Both the position numbers and the translations under genes were made by a program. A stretch of 52,339 nucleotides of DNA, from positions 1-52,339 of the IMG/VR virus record IMGVR_UViG_3300014208_000056; one strand, given 5' to 3'. The notes under the pieces were generated by a model. The model did not search any database. It was not told where the DNA came from and saw only the letters and a program-made list of their open reading frames with translations. Numbering within the stretch: the stretch's first letter is position 1; each line of letters starts with the position of its first letter. This document shows positions 287-4,944 of the stretch, piece after piece. The DNA is from a virus (taxonomy: Duplodnaviria > Caudoviricetes).

Positions 287-302
287 TGGCAACATGCTTG
301 CA
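287..302 (+). promoter_or_regulatory. Putative sigma54 (-24/-12) promoter
   Basis: TGGCAACATGCTTGCA, GG-N10-GC, close to consensus TGGCACGN4TTGCW; intergenic. Confidence 0.65.
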
Positions 303-327
303 CTACGCTTCACCAGGCATACACCTC

Positions 328-356
328 TTGACGGTATGAGCGAAAGCGTATACACT
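328..356 (+). promoter_or_regulatory. Putative sigma70 promoter
   Basis: TTGACG-N17-TACACT, upstream of RBS GGAGGAG and ATG 391. ATACAC(C/T)TC repeats at 319-327 and 350-358. Confidence 0.7.
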
Positions 357-390
357 TCCACTATGCCTCACGGTGAGGCGGGAGGAGTCC

Positions 391-585
391 ATGGTCTACA
401 AGGAGCCAGTCCAGCCAGTCATGATCCCGAAAACCATCATCGCCACAGTCAAGTCGCTCATCCCGCGACTGCGTGGGAGAAAGGAGTACGTCGTCTACGG
501 CAACCTAAGCATGACTGCCGTCATCCGGATCGCCATCGTCAAGGGAATCGAACAGATAGAGAAGGAACTCTCCGAGCCGAAATAA
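391..585 (+). CDS. Small DNA-binding protein, ribbon-helix-helix-like
   Basis: Strong RBS; short beta stretch followed by helices, with SMTAVIRIAIVKGIEQIEKE resembling RHH helix 2. Confidence 0.5.
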   Translation: MVYKEPVQPVMIPKTIIATVKSLIPRLRGRKEYVVYGNLSMTAVIRIAIVKGIEQIEKELSEPK

Positions 586-663
586 ACCAAGCGCAGGAAC
601 CCCGACCTCCGCCAAGACGACGAGGCTCCAGCGTCACCAACGAACACGAATGGAGACAAGCTA

Positions 664-1119
664 ATGTCTACGACCGAAGCCAACGAAAATCAAGACACAA
701 CCTTCGCCCCCCTCACCGTCCACCCTGCCCTCGCCCTCTTCCCGCTGATGACCGAGGCCGAGATCGCGAGCATGGCCGAGAGCATCAAGCACGTCGGCCT
801 CGTCCAGCGGATCTGCATCACCAAGATCGACGAGACCTACTACCTCATCGACGGCCGGTGCCGCTGGCTCGCCCTCGTCGAGGCCGGGCTCTCCGCCTCC
901 CTCGGGCACGACCTCTGCGCCGTCCTCGAGGACCACAGCTACCAGGCCAAGCTCGTGCGCTGGGTCAACTGCGCCGACGGTCTCGCGGCTGCCCACTTCG
1001 TCGCTTCCATGAACCTCTACCGGGCCAGCTACTCACCCGAGGAGCTGGCTGAGATCGAGGTCGCCGCTAGAGCCTACCTGGATAATAGCAAGGCCACTCG
1101 CGCCAACCAGGGGAAGTGA
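664..1119 (+). CDS. ParB N-terminal (ParB/Srx-like) domain protein
   Basis: HP..LFP.M..MAESIK.VGL...I..LIDGRCRW motif. Confidence 0.75.
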   Translation: MSTTEANENQDTTFAPLTVHPALALFPLMTEAEIASMAESIKHVGLVQRICITKIDETYYLIDGRCRWLALVEAGLSASLGHDLCAVLEDHSYQAKLVRWVNCADGLAAAHFVASMNLYRASYSPEELAEIEVAARAYLDNSKATRANQGK

Positions 1120-2261
1120 CCATGGACACCACCAACGAGTTCTACCCATTCACCGTCCATCCCGTCGCCGACTGGTTCCCCCTGATTGAGGGGGCCGCGT
1201 TCGACACCTTCGCGGAGGACATCAACCAGACCTGCCTCTCAGATAAGATCGTCGTCGCCCCGCGCGAGGACGGCAGCTATTGGCTCATCGACGGTCGCAA
1301 CCGCTGGCGAGCTATGGTTCGCAACGGCTGGGCCGGCTCGCTCCAAACCCAGGCCACGATGCTCCTCGGTGGAGATCGCGGGTGCCTCATCAACTTCGAG
1401 GTTCGGGCCGACCTCACGGAAGAGGACGAGATCGTCAGCTACATCCTCAGCCACAACCTGCACCGCCGCGAGATGACCACGGTGCAGCGCGCCCGCATCG
1501 CCCTCCGCGCCAAGGGGCGATTCGAGGCCCAGGCGCGCGAGAACATGGTCGCGACCCAGAACAACGATGCCGGTCGAGCTGCTTTGTCAGATATGACAAA
1601 CCTGGTGCCGGTCCACTCGCGCGACCAGGCCGCCGCCCTCGCCAAGGTCTCGGCCGGGACCATGCACAACGTCGAGCTGGTCGACCGCAACGCCATCCCC
1701 GAGCTGCGTGCCGCCATGGACTCGGGCCGCGTCAAGCCTGCGACCGCCGCAGCTGCCACGCGCTTGCCCCCCGAGGACCAGCGCGAAGTCGCCGCGACCG
1801 GAAAGCTGCCCAAGCCCGCGCACTGCCCGAGCCACGAGAGCCACGGCTACCCCACCGGAGCCAGGTGCCGGAGCTGCGGCCCCAACCTCTGCGGCGACTG
1901 CAGCACCCGCCGCGAGGCCGCCCTCGTCAGCCTCACCACCCCGGCGGCGGCGCCTACGAAGACGACGCCCACCACGCGCGAGGCCCAGTCGCGTCTCGAA
2001 GGTGCCCGACGCCGGGCCGATGCCCACGGCGAAGTGTTCGACGAAGCCGCCTTCCTCGCCATCGGAGCCGAGGTAGCCGAGGCCCTTGGCACCGCCACAA
2101 CCTGCACTGAGTGCGAGCGCGAAGACGACGACCTCGACGACTGGGGCCACTGCACCGAGTGCCGCACCATCTCGTTCAGGGGCGAGGTGGTGGCGGAGTT
2201 GCACTACGAGCCCGACCACGCGCCACGGGTCGTTTGTCGACCAGGCGCCTCCATCAAGTAG
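1116..2261 (+). CDS. ParB-like protein with HTH and C-terminal Cys-rich (Zn) motifs
   Basis: HPVADWFP..LIDGRNRW..SHNLHRREMT; HTH-like RDQAAALAKVSAGTM; CxxC pairs near the C-terminus. Confidence 0.75.
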   Translation: MTMDTTNEFYPFTVHPVADWFPLIEGAAFDTFAEDINQTCLSDKIVVAPREDGSYWLIDGRNRWRAMVRNGWAGSLQTQATMLLGGDRGCLINFEVRADLTEEDEIVSYILSHNLHRREMTTVQRARIALRAKGRFEAQARENMVATQNNDAGRAALSDMTNLVPVHSRDQAAALAKVSAGTMHNVELVDRNAIPELRAAMDSGRVKPATAAAATRLPPEDQREVAATGKLPKPAHCPSHESHGYPTGARCRSCGPNLCGDCSTRREAALVSLTTPAAAPTKTTPTTREAQSRLEGARRRADAHGEVFDEAAFLAIGAEVAEALGTATTCTECEREDDDLDDWGHCTECRTISFRGEVVAELHYEPDHAPRVVCRPGASIK

Positions 2262-3155: not shown

Positions 3156-3301
3156 CACCTGCTCGCGGAATGGCCAGCATCGGCGCCGAATCAGGCCCCA
3201 CCTGCTACCTTCGCCTGGTATCGAAGCCGTGCCATTTCGCCGCGCCGTTCCTGGTCCGTGTCGTTACTTGCCTGCGTGGGAGCTACCAGCGGGAGCTACC
3301 A
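3104..3301. other. Putative attP with integrase arm-type repeats
   Basis: GGGAGCTACCA at 3104, 3116, 3278 and 3291 (variant at 3137) flank a spacer at the 3' end of the integrase gene. Confidence 0.65.
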
Positions 3302-4403
3302 AACGCTCCGCGGCCGCCTGCTTCACCGCGTCGGACACCCCCGCGTAGTGCTCGGTCATCTGCTCGGAGCAGTGCCCCATCATCGCGCGAATGACCACCC
3401 GGTCGACCCCCGCGAGCAGGAGCAGGGTGTTGAAGGTGCGGCGAAGCACCTGGGGCGTGACGTGGAAGTCGAGCCCAATGCGCTCCGATGCCACGTGCAT
3501 CAGCCACTTCGGCCGCTCGGCAAGGTCTGGGAACACTCGCCCATCAGCCAAGCCCGGCGCCTGTGTCGCCAGCATCCGCCGCCGGTGGAGCTGGAGCGCC
3601 TCCCGAAGCGCCGCGGTGATTGGGACGCTGCGCGGGTCGCCTGTCTTCGTCGGCCCCTCGTTTCCGCGCCACAGACTGCGCCGCACCTCGATGGTGCCTT
3701 CGCCGATGTCCTCCCATTGCAGCGCCATCAGCTCCCCGTTGCGCATCCCCGTCGTTGCCAGCACGAGAATCGCCGTCCAGCGCTCGCCGTCCTCGTCGAG
3801 CCATCGCACCCTTTCGAGGAACTTCGACAGTTCGGCCTCGGACAGGGTCCTTCGTTCTCGCACCGACGGCGCGTGGGACCTTGGCGCCTGCACCCTGCGC
3901 ATGGGGTTGCTGCCGATGAGACCGTCCTCTACCGCGTCCTCGAGAAGTGAACGCAGCCGCACCCAGACGCTAGCCAGCGTCGCGCGGGAGTAGGGCTTGC
4001 CCTTCGCCCCCTTCTCGTGCTCGAGGGCCCTGGCGAGGAACTCCAGGTGCTCCCGCCGAAGGTCCTTGACGAGGATGCCGCCGATTCTCGACGTGACGAT
4101 TTCCAGGTCGCTCGACCGCGCGAGGAGGCTACCGGGGCGGATTCTCTTCTTCGCCTCGTCCAGCCACCTCTTGCAGTAGCCCTCGAGCGTAGGCCCGCAG
4201 TCCACCACCTCTGCGCGGGCCAGCTTCTGCCGCATCTTCTCGACCTTGGCGCGGGCGGCGCTGAGACTCGTGCCGGCGCGAAGGACCTTGCGCTTCCACT
4301 TCCTCTTGCCCTCGACGCGCGCGGTCGCCTCGACTCGGTAGCGCCCGTCTGGGAGCTTCGACACCCCGGGATACTTCGTCGGCTTGCCCCTCTGTCCCGC
4401 CAC
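3264..4403 (-). CDS. int: Tyrosine recombinase (integrase)
   Basis: N-terminal arm-binding-like segment; TTGMRNGELMALQW, TKT, PQVLRRTF, MMGH..MTEHY; GTG start with AGGGGG RBS. Confidence 0.93.
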   Translation of the reverse strand: MAGQRGKPTKYPGVSKLPDGRYRVEATARVEGKRKWKRKVLRAGTSLSAARAKVEKMRQKLARAEVVDCGPTLEGYCKRWLDEAKKRIRPGSLLARSSDLEIVTSRIGGILVKDLRREHLEFLARALEHEKGAKGKPYSRATLASVWVRLRSLLEDAVEDGLIGSNPMRRVQAPRSHAPSVRERRTLSEAELSKFLERVRWLDEDGERWTAILVLATTGMRNGELMALQWEDIGEGTIEVRRSLWRGNEGPTKTGDPRSVPITAALREALQLHRRRMLATQAPGLADGRVFPDLAERPKWLMHVASERIGLDFHVTPQVLRRTFNTLLLLAGVDRVVIRAMMGHCSEQMTEHYAGVSDAVKQAAAERLVAPAGSSHAGK

Positions 4404-4605
4404 TGGTAGCCCCCCTGCGCAGGTCTGCAACGAGGATACTCGCCCTGGCGTAGGCGTCTAGGGTGTCGCGCTTGAACAGCCACGTGCCGCACCCCCTCCT
4501 TCCGTCGGGCAGGATTGCCCCGGAGGAGATGAGCTGCCGCACGCGGGAGGCCGAGATGCCGCCCAGGTACTCGCCCGCCTGCGCTGTGGTGAGGAAGCCG
4601 TCCAT
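4129..4605 (-). CDS. xis: Excisionase-like HTH protein (domain is the first ~55 aa; the ORF reads on into int)
   Basis: FLTTAQAGEYLGGISASRVRQLISSGAI..WLFKRDTLDAY; directly upstream of int. Confidence 0.75.
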   Translation of the reverse strand: MDGFLTTAQAGEYLGGISASRVRQLISSGAILPDGRRGCGTWLFKRDTLDAYARASILVADLRRGATSGGTEGQADEVSRGVEAPRRALPSRGDRARRGQEEVEAQGPSRRHESQRRPRQGREDAAEAGPRRGGGLRAYARGLLQEVAGRGEEENPPR

Positions 4606-4848
4606 CGGTGTTGGGCCCCGGGGTGCTGTCGTCCTGGAGAAGGAGACTCTACGAAGACGGCCAGCCGTTCGGCGACGCCGACCTCTTGTGCGAGTCGCCG
4701 GGCCTTACGCTTGCGGACCGGCGACCGTGGGCAGGCACTCTCCATCCGCGGCGTATCGCCGCAGCTTTCGCCGCCCCGGGGGTGCGCGAAGTAGTGCGAG
4801 GGACGCGCCATCGGCCGCGGGGCCAGGATTCACGGGCCAAGGTGGCGA

Positions 4849-4890
4849 TGTCCGCATAAATGCAGTCAGGTGTCCGCATAAATGCAGTCA
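4849..4890. repeat. Perfect 20-bp direct repeat x2 (22-bp period); candidate enhancer/operator
   Basis: TGTCCGCATAAATGCAGTCA at 4849-4868 and 4871-4890. Confidence 0.9.
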
Positions 4891-4928
4891 CTGGCCCGGA
4901 GCCAGCCCCGTTCCTTGACCCGCGCGCG

Positions 4929-4944
4929 TGGCACGTCACTGGCA
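4929..4944 (+). promoter_or_regulatory. Putative sigma54 promoter for the early operon
   Basis: TGGCACGTCACTGGCA, one mismatch to TGGCACGN4TTGCA; shares CGTGGCA...GCACTAC with the site at 287. Confidence 0.6.

Follow-up and report, generated by a model that had tools for sequence, protein, structure and literature searches.

The early control region of an uncultured temperate phage, recovered as a 52.3-kb groundwater viral contig (52,339 nt, hereafter the window), probably contains a genuine sigma-54 circuit. In silico evidence supports the presence of a structurally complete sigma-54 activator, and four elements of one -24/-12 family stand ahead of the activator operon, the activator gene itself, the integration genes, and the replication genes. 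The sequence observation of the first-pass annotation, which had reported the activator and two of these elements, is confirmed and is stronger than first reported. Its interpretation stood in part: the activator and the element family before the activator and replication operons hold, whereas a sigma-54 module as a replacement for the CI/Cro switch is unproven.

The activator gene (2268–3155, plus strand) encodes a 295-aa bEBP with an AAA+ sigma-54 interaction domain, a lid domain, and a C-terminal HTH_17-like winged helix. That it is a complete GAFTGA activator was borne out by a match to Pfam Sigma54_activat (4.8e-52; 176.5 bits for a cut-off of 20.2). The lid domain matches AAA_lid_14 (Pfam, 3.7e-11), the protein has the Walker A (GKPGTGKS), GAFTGA, Walker B (FIDEIG), and NVREL motifs, and it keeps the bEBP-invariant columns in an alignment of eight sequences. 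The nearest solved structures are NifA (4e-51), NtrC1, LuxO, ZraR, and PspF (2e-38); the single-sequence AlphaFold model of the protein is poor (pLDDT 38). There is no N-terminal sensor domain, so the activator should be active whenever it is made. [quoted passage not shown] The phage protein is likewise a sensorless GAFTGA AAA+ protein with a C-terminal DNA-binding domain, but this domain is HTH_17/excisionase-like (Pfam HTH_17, 7.9e-5; three of six weak library matches are HTH_17 proteins) and not a Fis-type HTH_8. It also differs in being phage-borne, with four candidate promoters that include those of int and the replication genes. Orthology with PspF is ruled out by a TIGR02974 score of 190 bits, for a cut-off of 443.55, and no PspA-like inhibitor was seen in the phage. 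Upstream of the activator gene lie genes for a 151-aa ParB_N-like protein (664–1119, plus strand; Pfam ParB_N 1.6e-5, just under the cut-off; ParB-like PHROGs) and a 381-aa ParB-like protein with a Cys-rich C-terminus (1116–2261, plus strand; phrog_4715, ParB-like, 5.6e-13).

Both -24/-12 elements of the first-pass annotation were found where it had placed them. P1 (CGTGGCAACATGCTTGCACTAC, 285–306, plus strand; 10/12 to the consensus; predicted start ~313) lies 17 nt past the stop of the upstream ORF and heads the activator's own operon, ahead of the RHH, ParB, and activator genes, as had been claimed. PR (CGTGGCACGTCACTGGCACTAC, 4927–4948, plus strand; 11/12; predicted start ~4955) points at the replication operon. 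Each has 12 nt from the start of GG to the start of GC, the -24/-12 spacing of sigma-54 promoters. A pattern defined post hoc from these two sites, TGG-N10-GCACTAC, has four exact copies in the window (at 287, 2188, 4810 on the minus strand, and 4929) for 0.08 expected; none of 100 shuffles reached four, and the shuffle maximum was one. Because the pattern derives from P1 and PR, the independent evidence consists of the two extra matches, 2188–2207 (plus) and 4810–4791 (minus). The former, Pb (TGGTGGCGGAGTTGCACTAC; predicted start ~2214), lies inside the ParB-like gene, at its 3' end, 61 nt ahead of the activator ATG; its -24 half is weak and its consensus score is below 9/12. This position directly before the activator gene fits positive autoregulation. 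The latter, PL (TGGCGCGTCCCTCGCACTAC, 4791–4810, minus strand; 10/12; predicted start ~4784), points at the excisionase-like HTH_17 ORF and int. All four copies fall within positions 1–5000, and each is oriented to a gene start 54–275 nt past its own predicted start site. When the four are aligned, the positions that never change are those of the sigma-54 consensus together with CTAC, and the spacer is variable; the family can be written TGG-N8-T-N-GCACTAC, with GG and GC at -24/-12 spacing. The T of the consensus at -14 is replaced by C or G in PL and PR. The number of sites is non-random, and their placement, orientation, and geometry are established.

Cruder counts depart less from expectation. 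With the 12-position consensus there are 8 sites at ≥10/12 for 4.3 expected (18 of 200 Markov shuffles have as many) and 2 at ≥11/12 for 0.35 expected (6 of 200), and TGGCA-N6-TKGCA with at most one mismatch gives 7 matches for 4.0 expected. The consensus count thus exceeds chance only weakly, and the shared-flank pattern is the stronger chance test. These modest excesses are what one would see if the -24/-12 look-alikes were coincidental GC-rich words in a genome of 66% G+C, and if ordinary housekeeping promoters, missed by a simple scan, served these genes. There is indeed a good sigma-70-like site, TTGACG-17-TACACT (328–356, plus strand), between P1 and the first gene and 26 nt downstream of P1, which could alone serve the first operon. 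It is the sole such site in 1–5600 (1 for 0.4 expected), none being found in the 620-bp PL/PR region, and the scan was limited to promoters of the sigma-70-like type. We nevertheless regard coincidence as very improbable given the clustering of the exact extended matches in 5 kb and the mirror symmetry of PL and PR described below; nor is it evident why a phage lacking sigma-54 targets would keep a GAFTGA activator intact. The site at 328–356 could be an ignition promoter for the activator operon or a rival to P1.

The invariant CACTAC 3' of the -12 lies outside the sigma-54 consensus and could be the site of another protein. The heptamer GCACTAC alone has 11 copies for 2.4 expected (0 of 100 shuffles reach 11), and TGG stands at the required offset in 4 of the 11. 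The elements might then be binding sites of a phage protein and not promoters, recognised by a ParB-like protein (in KorB-style silencing), the HTH_17 protein, or the RHH protein, and the activator would target host sigma-54 genes instead, in host takeover or lysogenic conversion. Such sites would agree with an invariant stretch that reaches 4 nt past the -12 box, with the two ParB-like genes in the activator's operon, and with the poor -24 of Pb. We judge this unlikely: TGG is at the exact sigma-54 spacing in all four elements, their strands are consistent with the genes, and a GAFTGA activator is encoded within 5 kb, which together make sigma-54 the simplest explanation.

Canonical sigma-54 sites are also found in the genomes of unrelated bEBP-bearing phages. 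One 48.7-kb viral contig with a GAFTGA bEBP (G809) has seven exact matches to TGGCAY-N5-TTGCW, each of them on the coding strand, and none to the reversed control pattern. These seven also share bases just past the -12 (TTGCAGG in most), so such an extension seems compatible with phage sigma-54 sites. Among 11 short bEBP loci in unrelated viral contigs, 7 have a sigma-54 site of ≥11/12 on the same strand, 14–50 nt past the bEBP stop; one such locus has phage genes for a helicase, an exonuclease, and Sak4 around it. Like the protein studied here, phrog_7998 (labelled 'unknown function') and the short viral bEBPs (L001, L236, L243–L246, L249, and L254) are phage-borne GAFTGA or GSFTGA AAA+ activators whose genomes also contain sigma-54 consensus sites. 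They differ in their size (255–300 aa, most without room for a DNA-binding domain, which is similarly lacking in FlgR of Helicobacter and CtcC of Chlamydia) and in having the sigma-54 site usually directly after the activator gene. Their identity to this phage's activator is at most 38%, and no other genes are common to their contigs and this one.

The perfect 20-bp direct repeat reported 39–80 nt upstream of the second element is there: TGTCCGCATAAATGCAGTCA occurs at 4849–4868 and 4871–4890 (period 22), and the whole window has no further copies with up to three mismatches. PL (4810) and PR (4929) mirror each other around 4869.5, the very point on which the repeat pair is centred; each of the two predicted divergent starts is 85.5 bp from that point, and the repeats overlap neither -24/-12 element. 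This symmetry fits a shared enhancer, for which the repeat pair is the candidate. Neither P1 nor Pb has the repeat upstream, the best matches there being 12/20 and 10/20; in the window as a whole, 53 positions match it at ≥12/20. The arrangement recalls the divergent sigma-54 promoters of zraP and zraSR, served by ZraR from one central activator-binding region with tandem sites. Here too the -24/-12 elements are back to back with tandem candidate activator sites between them, but in the phage the elements mirror each other exactly around the repeat pair, the candidate sites take the form of direct 20-bp repeats, and the cargo is integration and replication. At the predicted PR start site there is a GC-rich hairpin followed by TCTTGTTT (4953–4971, plus strand); the overall folding of the 286-nt PR leader is unremarkable (z = 0.10).

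On the PL side, an excisionase-type HTH_17 domain (4405–4605, minus strand; Pfam HTH_17 2.7e-6; TIGR01764 1.4e-5) lies in an ORF that continues as far as 4129, sharing 302 nt with int in a different frame. The tyrosine integrase (3264–4430, minus strand) matches Pfam Phage_integrase (7.2e-15) and phrog_1 (1.1e-62). Four copies of GGGAGCTACCA (3101–3126 and 3275–3301; repeat family D3) lie on either side of the 108 nt that separate the activator gene from the convergent int gene and are probably attP arm-type sites. On the other side, PR heads the early operon expected from the first-pass annotation (5230–12023, plus strand), with two small ORFs followed by genes for SSB, a nucleoside deoxyribosyltransferase, a DNA methyltransferase, a helicase, and a primase.

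No CI/Cro gene had been recognised in this region, and in agreement none of 40 ORF translations matches an XRE/CI-type HTH or an S24 peptidase in Pfam. A more conventional logic has appreciable plausibility all the same: a canonical repressor would set lysogeny, and the sigma-54 module would merely act downstream as an early or delayed-early activator. The repressor could be encoded in a part of the genome that was not assembled, as the contig is truncated: its completeness is ~60% (CheckV), the tape-measure gene is followed by only two more ORFs before the end, baseplate, fibre, and lysis modules are missing, and there is a record of the same activator protein on a 65,777-nt contig. It could also be the product of the first gene after P1 (391–585, plus strand; 64 aa from an ATG after GGAGGAG), which resembles CopG/RHH regulators, and the 20-bp repeats could be its operator. 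RHH proteins often bind tandem repeats, and each 20-bp repeat contains a short palindrome, GCAT-AA-ATGC. A strain variant in one run shows an apparent replacement of 256–700 (P1 and the RHH gene; joint side 30, borderline), a mosaicism of the type seen in immunity regions. Against this, the RHH assignment is a language-model lead (feature scores of 0.92 to CopG/RHH_1 clusters), with no match in Pfam, NCBIfam, or PADLOC, and the repeats lie at enhancer distance from both promoters, clear of the -24/-12 elements.

On balance we lean towards an early control region run on the host's sigma-54 RNA polymerase and switched on by the phage's own activator, a PspF-style bEBP whose GAFTGA loop would contact sigma-54. 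P1 would drive the RHH/ParB/activator operon, Pb the activator gene itself, PL the excisionase-like ORF and the integrase, and PR the SSB/methylase/helicase/primase operon, with PL and PR diverging from one enhancer made of the two repeats, probably bound by the HTH_17-type domain of the activator. The sigma-70-like promoter downstream of P1 could make the first activator molecules, after which P1 and Pb would give positive feedback. What is inferred here is the use of sigma-54, the activator's binding at the repeats, its autoregulation, and the timing. The contig itself has no rpoN gene, and RpoN is assumed to come from the host; TerL is at most 43% identical to those of 401 genomes of each of two phyla. 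No close relatives of the contig were found, and the sequence is present in two sequencing runs only, both of DNA.

Phage-encoded activators of otherwise silent phage promoters include CII of lambda (at PI and PRE), Ogr of P2, and C of Mu. Together with the RinA family, they resemble the proposed system in that the phage makes an activator for silent promoters, one of them for int. These proteins act with the sigma-70 holoenzyme, by recruitment or DNA remodelling, and we know of none that works with sigma-54 or ATP-driven opening. The AAA+ protein Htm (Gp204) of an E. coli phage is structurally like RtcR, PspF, and NtrC and has a proposed role in transcription (bioRxiv 10.64898/2026.10.06.757011). 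To that extent it is comparable as a phage-encoded AAA+ protein linked to bEBP-type structures, and differs in that candidate promoters adjoin the activator studied here. The only mention from a cultured phage that we found in the literature is gp46 of the Bdellovibrio phage phi1422, termed a 'sigma-54-type regulator' (PMC3391216). Unlike our activator, it has 109 aa, too short for an AAA+ domain, and is encoded between portal and head genes; neither bEBP query has a tblastn match to it. A full-text search of the literature found no description of a comparable phage switch, as the first-pass annotation had presumed. The activator and its matching sigma-54-type promoter sequences suggest a route for switching on phage genes.

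On sequence grounds, the 295-residue protein encoded at 2268-3155 (+) is a GAFTGA-type bEBP, an assignment that follows from its Sigma54_activat match, its motifs and its domain layout. The first-pass annotation had described a complete GAFTGA activator at this position, and profile searches bear this out. The protein matches Pfam PF00158 (Sigma54_activat) with 176.5 bits (cut-off 20.2; E = 4.8e-52), the match covering positions 11 to 167 of the 168-position profile. It also possesses an AAA lid domain and carries GKPGTGKS (Walker A), GAFTGA (residues 72-77), FIDEIG (Walker B) and NVREL, together with the arginine-finger and sensor residues. 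When aligned with seven other bEBPs, it has 41 invariant columns in common with them, and its closest solved relatives are NifA, NtrC1, LuxO, ZraR and PspF. Because the Pfam match already starts at residue 7 of the protein (position 11 of the profile), the activator has no N-terminal sensor or receiver domain. PspF is the closest to it in architecture, yet the activator is not a PspF orthologue: it scores below the PspF equivalog thresholds (190 vs 443.55 for TIGR02974 and 150.4 vs 529 for NF008622), and the NCBIfam scores make it the orthologue of no named bEBP. PHROGs lists its family, phrog_7998, as of unknown function. We also considered an RtcR-type CARF-AAA-HTH regulator and rejected it. 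The sole defence-system match that PADLOC gave is a generic AAA+ similarity to RtcR-type models that begins at position 179 of 481, and thus covers the AAA+ part only, with no N-terminal CARF domain.

[quoted passage not shown] Its last 70 residues show weak similarity to HTH_17 (excisionase/MerR-like; 23.3 bits vs a cut-off of 27) and to the PADLOC mad1 profile (6e-4). A search of this domain against 1.84 billion representatives returned, besides itself, six weak matches only; four of these were scanned, of which three are HTH_17 proteins and none has a sigma-54 domain. The domain has no match in the PDB and no BLASTP similarity to the other two HTH_17 domains of the phage. An AlphaFold model of the activator made from the single sequence was poor (pLDDT 38); at this low confidence it places a helix-helix-hairpin at 241-275. 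Beside the 3' end of the gene, four direct copies of GGGAGCTACCA lie at 3101-3126 and 3275-3301, on either side of the 108 nt that separate the activator gene from the convergent integrase gene. Two are in the last codons of the activator, where they encode a GATK/GATI repeat, and two in the last codons of the integrase; they look like arm-type sites of attP.

Sigma-54 promoters follow the consensus TGGCAC-N5-TTGCW, in which GG and GC are exactly 10 nt apart. The first-pass annotation had reported two such -24/-12 elements, P1 (285-306, +) and PR (4927-4948, +). Both were confirmed, its coordinates and sequences all proving correct on check against the window, and the flanks common to the two sites gave the pattern TGG-N10-GCACTAC, which extends the set to four. 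The window contains four exact copies of this pattern where 0.08 are expected, and the maximum in 100 shuffles was one. The new copies are Pb (2188-2207, +; TGGTGGCGGAGTTGCACTAC), located 61 nt before the start codon of the activator, and PL (4810-4791, -; TGGCGCGTCCCTCGCACTAC), which faces an excisionase-like ORF and the integrase. All four are within the first 5 kb and each is aimed at a gene start: with transcription predicted to begin 12 nt past the C of GC (4784 for PL, 4955 for PR), the predicted starts of P1, Pb, PL and PR precede ATG 391 by 78, ATG 2268 by 54, ATG 4605 (-) by 179 and ATG 5230 by 275 nt, respectively. The GG/GC spacing of sigma-54 promoters is present in all of them, and their scores against the consensus are 10/12 (P1), 11/12 (PR), 10/12 (PL) and below 9/12 (Pb). 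Counts of the textbook consensus show a weak enrichment in the window, whose genome is GC-rich. When the four sites are aligned, TGG, GCACTAC and the T located two bases ahead of GC are invariant, and the spacer varies; this is the pattern that would be expected of a sigma-54 promoter family, apart from the extra CTAC. The GCACTAC heptamer itself occurs 11 times (2.4 expected; no shuffle out of 100 reached 11), and TGG stands at the required offset only in the four copies that make up P1, Pb, PL and PR. The other seven are mostly intragenic. A further element, TGGTACGTCGGTGGCT at 19640-19655, scores 10/12 and lies in an apparent gap ahead of the ORF at 19739-20035; it lacks the CACTAC flank and was left out of the count as a fifth site.

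A simple sigma-70 scan identified TTGACG-17-TACACT 26 nt downstream of P1 and no site in the 620-bp PL/PR region. One could suppose that the four elements arose by chance and that sigma-70 promoters missed by the scan drive these genes. Another explanation is that TGG-N10-GCACTAC marks the sites of a ParB-like or HTH protein and that the activator acts on host genes. We rank both, and also the repressor-based explanation discussed below, as less likely, well below a sigma-54 circuit, on account of three features: the sigma-54 spacing, which is exact in all four sites, the way the sites are oriented, and the GAFTGA activator encoded in the window. Two other observations concern the regions next to PL and PR. 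A terminator-like hairpin followed by TCTTGTTT occupies 4953-4971, exactly on the predicted PR start; the rest of the 275-nt PR leader shows no unusual fold, and Rfam gave no match there or elsewhere in the window. The excisionase-like ORF (4129-4605, -) matches HTH_17 only over its first ~55 residues and continues for ~100 Arg-rich codons over the start of int in a different frame; six consecutive C residues stand at 4410-4415. The ORF represents either a short Xis whose frame reads on past its end or the N-terminal domain of Int, split by a frameshift.

The layout of PL and PR is symmetric. The PL site starts at 4810 (-) and the PR site at 4929 (+), which gives a midpoint of 4869.5, and the two perfect 20-bp direct repeats at 4849-4890 have this same midpoint. 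The centres of the repeats are at about -74 and -96 from the predicted starts of both PL and PR. Binding sites of bEBPs are found roughly 70-150 bp upstream of the promoter, a range that includes both centres, and the repeats are candidate activator sites by their position. No further copy of the 20-bp repeat exists in the window, and no recognisable copy was found upstream of P1 and Pb.

The first-pass annotation had interpreted the control region as a candidate sigma-54 circuit standing where a CI/Cro switch would normally be. This interpretation is supported in part: the activator, the sites and their geometry fit the circuit, and the replacement of CI/Cro is the weakest part of the claim, given the incomplete genome and the RHH-like gene. 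None of 40 ORF translations matched XRE-type HTH or S24 families, in a genome that is incomplete and whose structural-region ORFs were scanned with PHROGs only, and the interval 4606-5229, between int and the replication genes, has no convincing ORF. A conventional repressor could stand behind lysogeny, with the repeats as the operator of the RHH-like protein. The incompleteness of the genome is in favour of this explanation, as are the resemblance of the first gene after P1 (391-585) to CopG/RHH regulators, which is a lead only, and the borderline observation that 256-700, exactly P1 and the RHH-like gene, is apparently replaced in a strain variant from one sequencing run. That comparison rests on assembled contigs and is uninformative on start sites. 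In this run (X2), a single contig joins 701-4278 to ~255, omitting 445 nt that comprise P1, the sigma-70-like site and the RHH-like gene, and has 13 listed substitutions in 734-814. It possibly reflects a strain variant whose cassette differs; the side of the joint is just 30 nt long. Spacing, orientation and the GAFTGA activator lead us to keep the sigma-54 circuit as the main reading.

The window, an IMG/VR viral record of 52,339 bp, is classed as linear and estimated by CheckV to be ~60% complete. It has 62-69% G+C, and the plus strand carries nearly all genes. These include a tyrosine integrase, SSB, a nucleoside deoxyribosyltransferase, two DNA methyltransferases, a helicase, a primase and ThyX, as well as TerL, portal, head protease, major head protein, tail sheath and tape measure, a set that indicates a temperate myovirus-type phage. 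The sequence ends just past the tape-measure gene; it lacks the part of the genome ahead of position 1 as well as genes for baseplate, fibre and lysis. We found no rpoN in the window, and ARAGORN predicted no tRNA. Two proteins have sigma-70 region-4 domains (12460-12924, 3.2e-7; 15401-16042, 4.3e-8) and could regulate middle or late genes; in the second, the N-terminus holds an HTH_17 domain as well. The window further encodes a dense nucleotide and DNA-modification set (6684-7909, 12636-15014 and 22212-23858), comprising the nucleoside deoxyribosyltransferase, the two DNA methyltransferases, a UDG-superfamily protein, VRR-NUC, ThyX and DUF5131.

An identical activator is also on record on a contig of 65,777 nt. 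The DNA of the window is present in two groundwater metagenome runs, from which the record may derive, and there is no RNA run among the listed holders. Searches for close relatives found none with the activator among viral, genome and metagenome contigs (best ~50% identity, in the AAA+ core only), with primase and TerL in viral contigs, with the exact 20-bp repeat in viral contigs, or with blastn of 1-8000 against phages. When TerL was searched against 401 genomes from each of two phyla, identity was at most 43% in the phylum of a Myxococcales MAG and at most 41% in that of an Acidobacteriota MAG; the closest named TerL (51% identity) is from a Thermoanaerobaculia MAG. The 22-nt promoter pattern is present in 13 viral contigs that have no protein in common with the window, and we took these as chance occurrences or unrelated sigma-54 sites.

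A profile scan revealed 200 stretches of viral contigs encoding bEBP relatives, of which 80 were kept. Many of the latter are long sensor-bearing proteins close to contig ends and are probably encoded by the host next to a prophage border. Among the loci with short bEBPs, 7 out of 11 have a sigma-54 site (at least 11/12) on the same strand, 14-50 nt past the stop codon of the activator, and these seven sites represent at least four different sequences. Loci L243-L246, L249, L254 and L001 have activators of 255-300 aa, with GSFTGA or GAFTGA, and a near-perfect sigma-54 site after the stop codon. Most of the short activators are too short to hold a DNA-binding domain. The neighbours of L245 are phage helicase, exonuclease and Sak4 genes, and the record of L001, bounded by direct terminal repeats, is rated as complete. 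The unrelated viral record G809 (48.7 kb, 32% G+C), which holds L236 and L267-L269, encodes a 265-aa GAFTGA protein. TGGCAY-N5-TTGCW occurs there in seven exact copies, each of them on the strand with 64 of the 76 roughly called ORFs, and the reversed control pattern has no copy; on this rough ORF map, several of the seven are inside called ORFs. The G809 sites have common bases just past -12, with GG next in most, so that extension of the flank beyond -12 seems characteristic of sigma-54 site families in phages. These loci show that the window does not stand alone: bEBPs beside canonical sigma-54 sites also occur in several other uncultured phages unrelated to it.

The mechanism would be ordinary bEBP/sigma-54 biology in a new setting. 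The layout most similar to PL/PR is that of paired, divergent sigma-54 promoters with the activator sites lying between them. The first-pass annotation knew of no phage switch of this kind, and our literature searches likewise found no equivalent: full-text searches, which covered the main text of openly accessible papers, identified no phage GAFTGA activator driving phage promoters, and an older description may exist. A recent preprint (bioRxiv 10.64898/2026.10.06.757011, 2026) deals with Htm, a phage AAA+ protein in which its authors report GAFTGA and a DNA-binding domain to be absent. A remark on a 'sigma-54-type regulator' of Bdellovibrio phage phi1422 is found in PMC3391216 (2012). The gene concerned, gp46 (NC_019525, 24471-24800), encodes 109 aa between the portal and head-morphogenesis genes and is annotated as 'putative sigma-54-dependent transcriptional regulator'. 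Searches of two bEBPs by tblastn against 50,697 phage records returned bacterial-looking or fragmentary records only.

From the parts observed in the window and their geometry, we infer sigma-54 use, activator binding and feedback in the following scheme, which we regard as the most likely. Host sigma-54 holoenzyme would sit in closed complexes on all four promoters, which the sensor-less phage activator, when produced, would open. The sigma-70-like promoter may initiate transcription of the RHH/ParB/ParB/activator operon, after which P1 and Pb would boost production of the activator. The repeat pair would be a common enhancer for int (from PL) and the replication operon (from PR), and later genes may be passed to the two sigma-70 region-4 proteins. 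A bolder reading joins these elements, and we hold it tentatively, as possible and on balance doubtful. It states that an off-by-default, enhancer-dependent switch replaced the logic of the CI/Cro repressors, and that phage bEBP/sigma-54 regulons are an unrecognised class of viral transcription. Sigma-54 promoters, needing ATP-driven activation, would hold int and replication silent; the sensor-less activator with its own sigma-54 promoters would form a positive-feedback latch; and the mirror-symmetric enhancer would trigger integration and replication genes at once. The class would span roughly two hundred uncultured viral contigs, with none found in a cultured phage.

To our knowledge, sigma-54 promoters are unique among the promoter classes of bacteria in being essentially silent unless an ATP-consuming activator is present, and are therefore natural material for a tight genetic switch. 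The phage developmental switches studied to date that we know of use sigma-70 with repressors, anti-terminators or recruiters, or the phage's own sigma factors or polymerases. The idea would surprise specialists of both phages and sigma-54, and can be tested cheaply and directly with synthetic DNA in laboratory strains. The elements also form a compact, orthogonal toolkit: an activator that lacks a sensor and has an unusual putative DNA-binding domain, a candidate enhancer unit of 20 bp and a family of four promoters. If the sigma-54 circuit is real, a phage that supplies its own GAFTGA activator and places int, the replication genes and the gene of this activator under the control of -24/-12 promoters would represent a new regulatory strategy in phage biology, one that would tie phage development to the RpoN status of the host.
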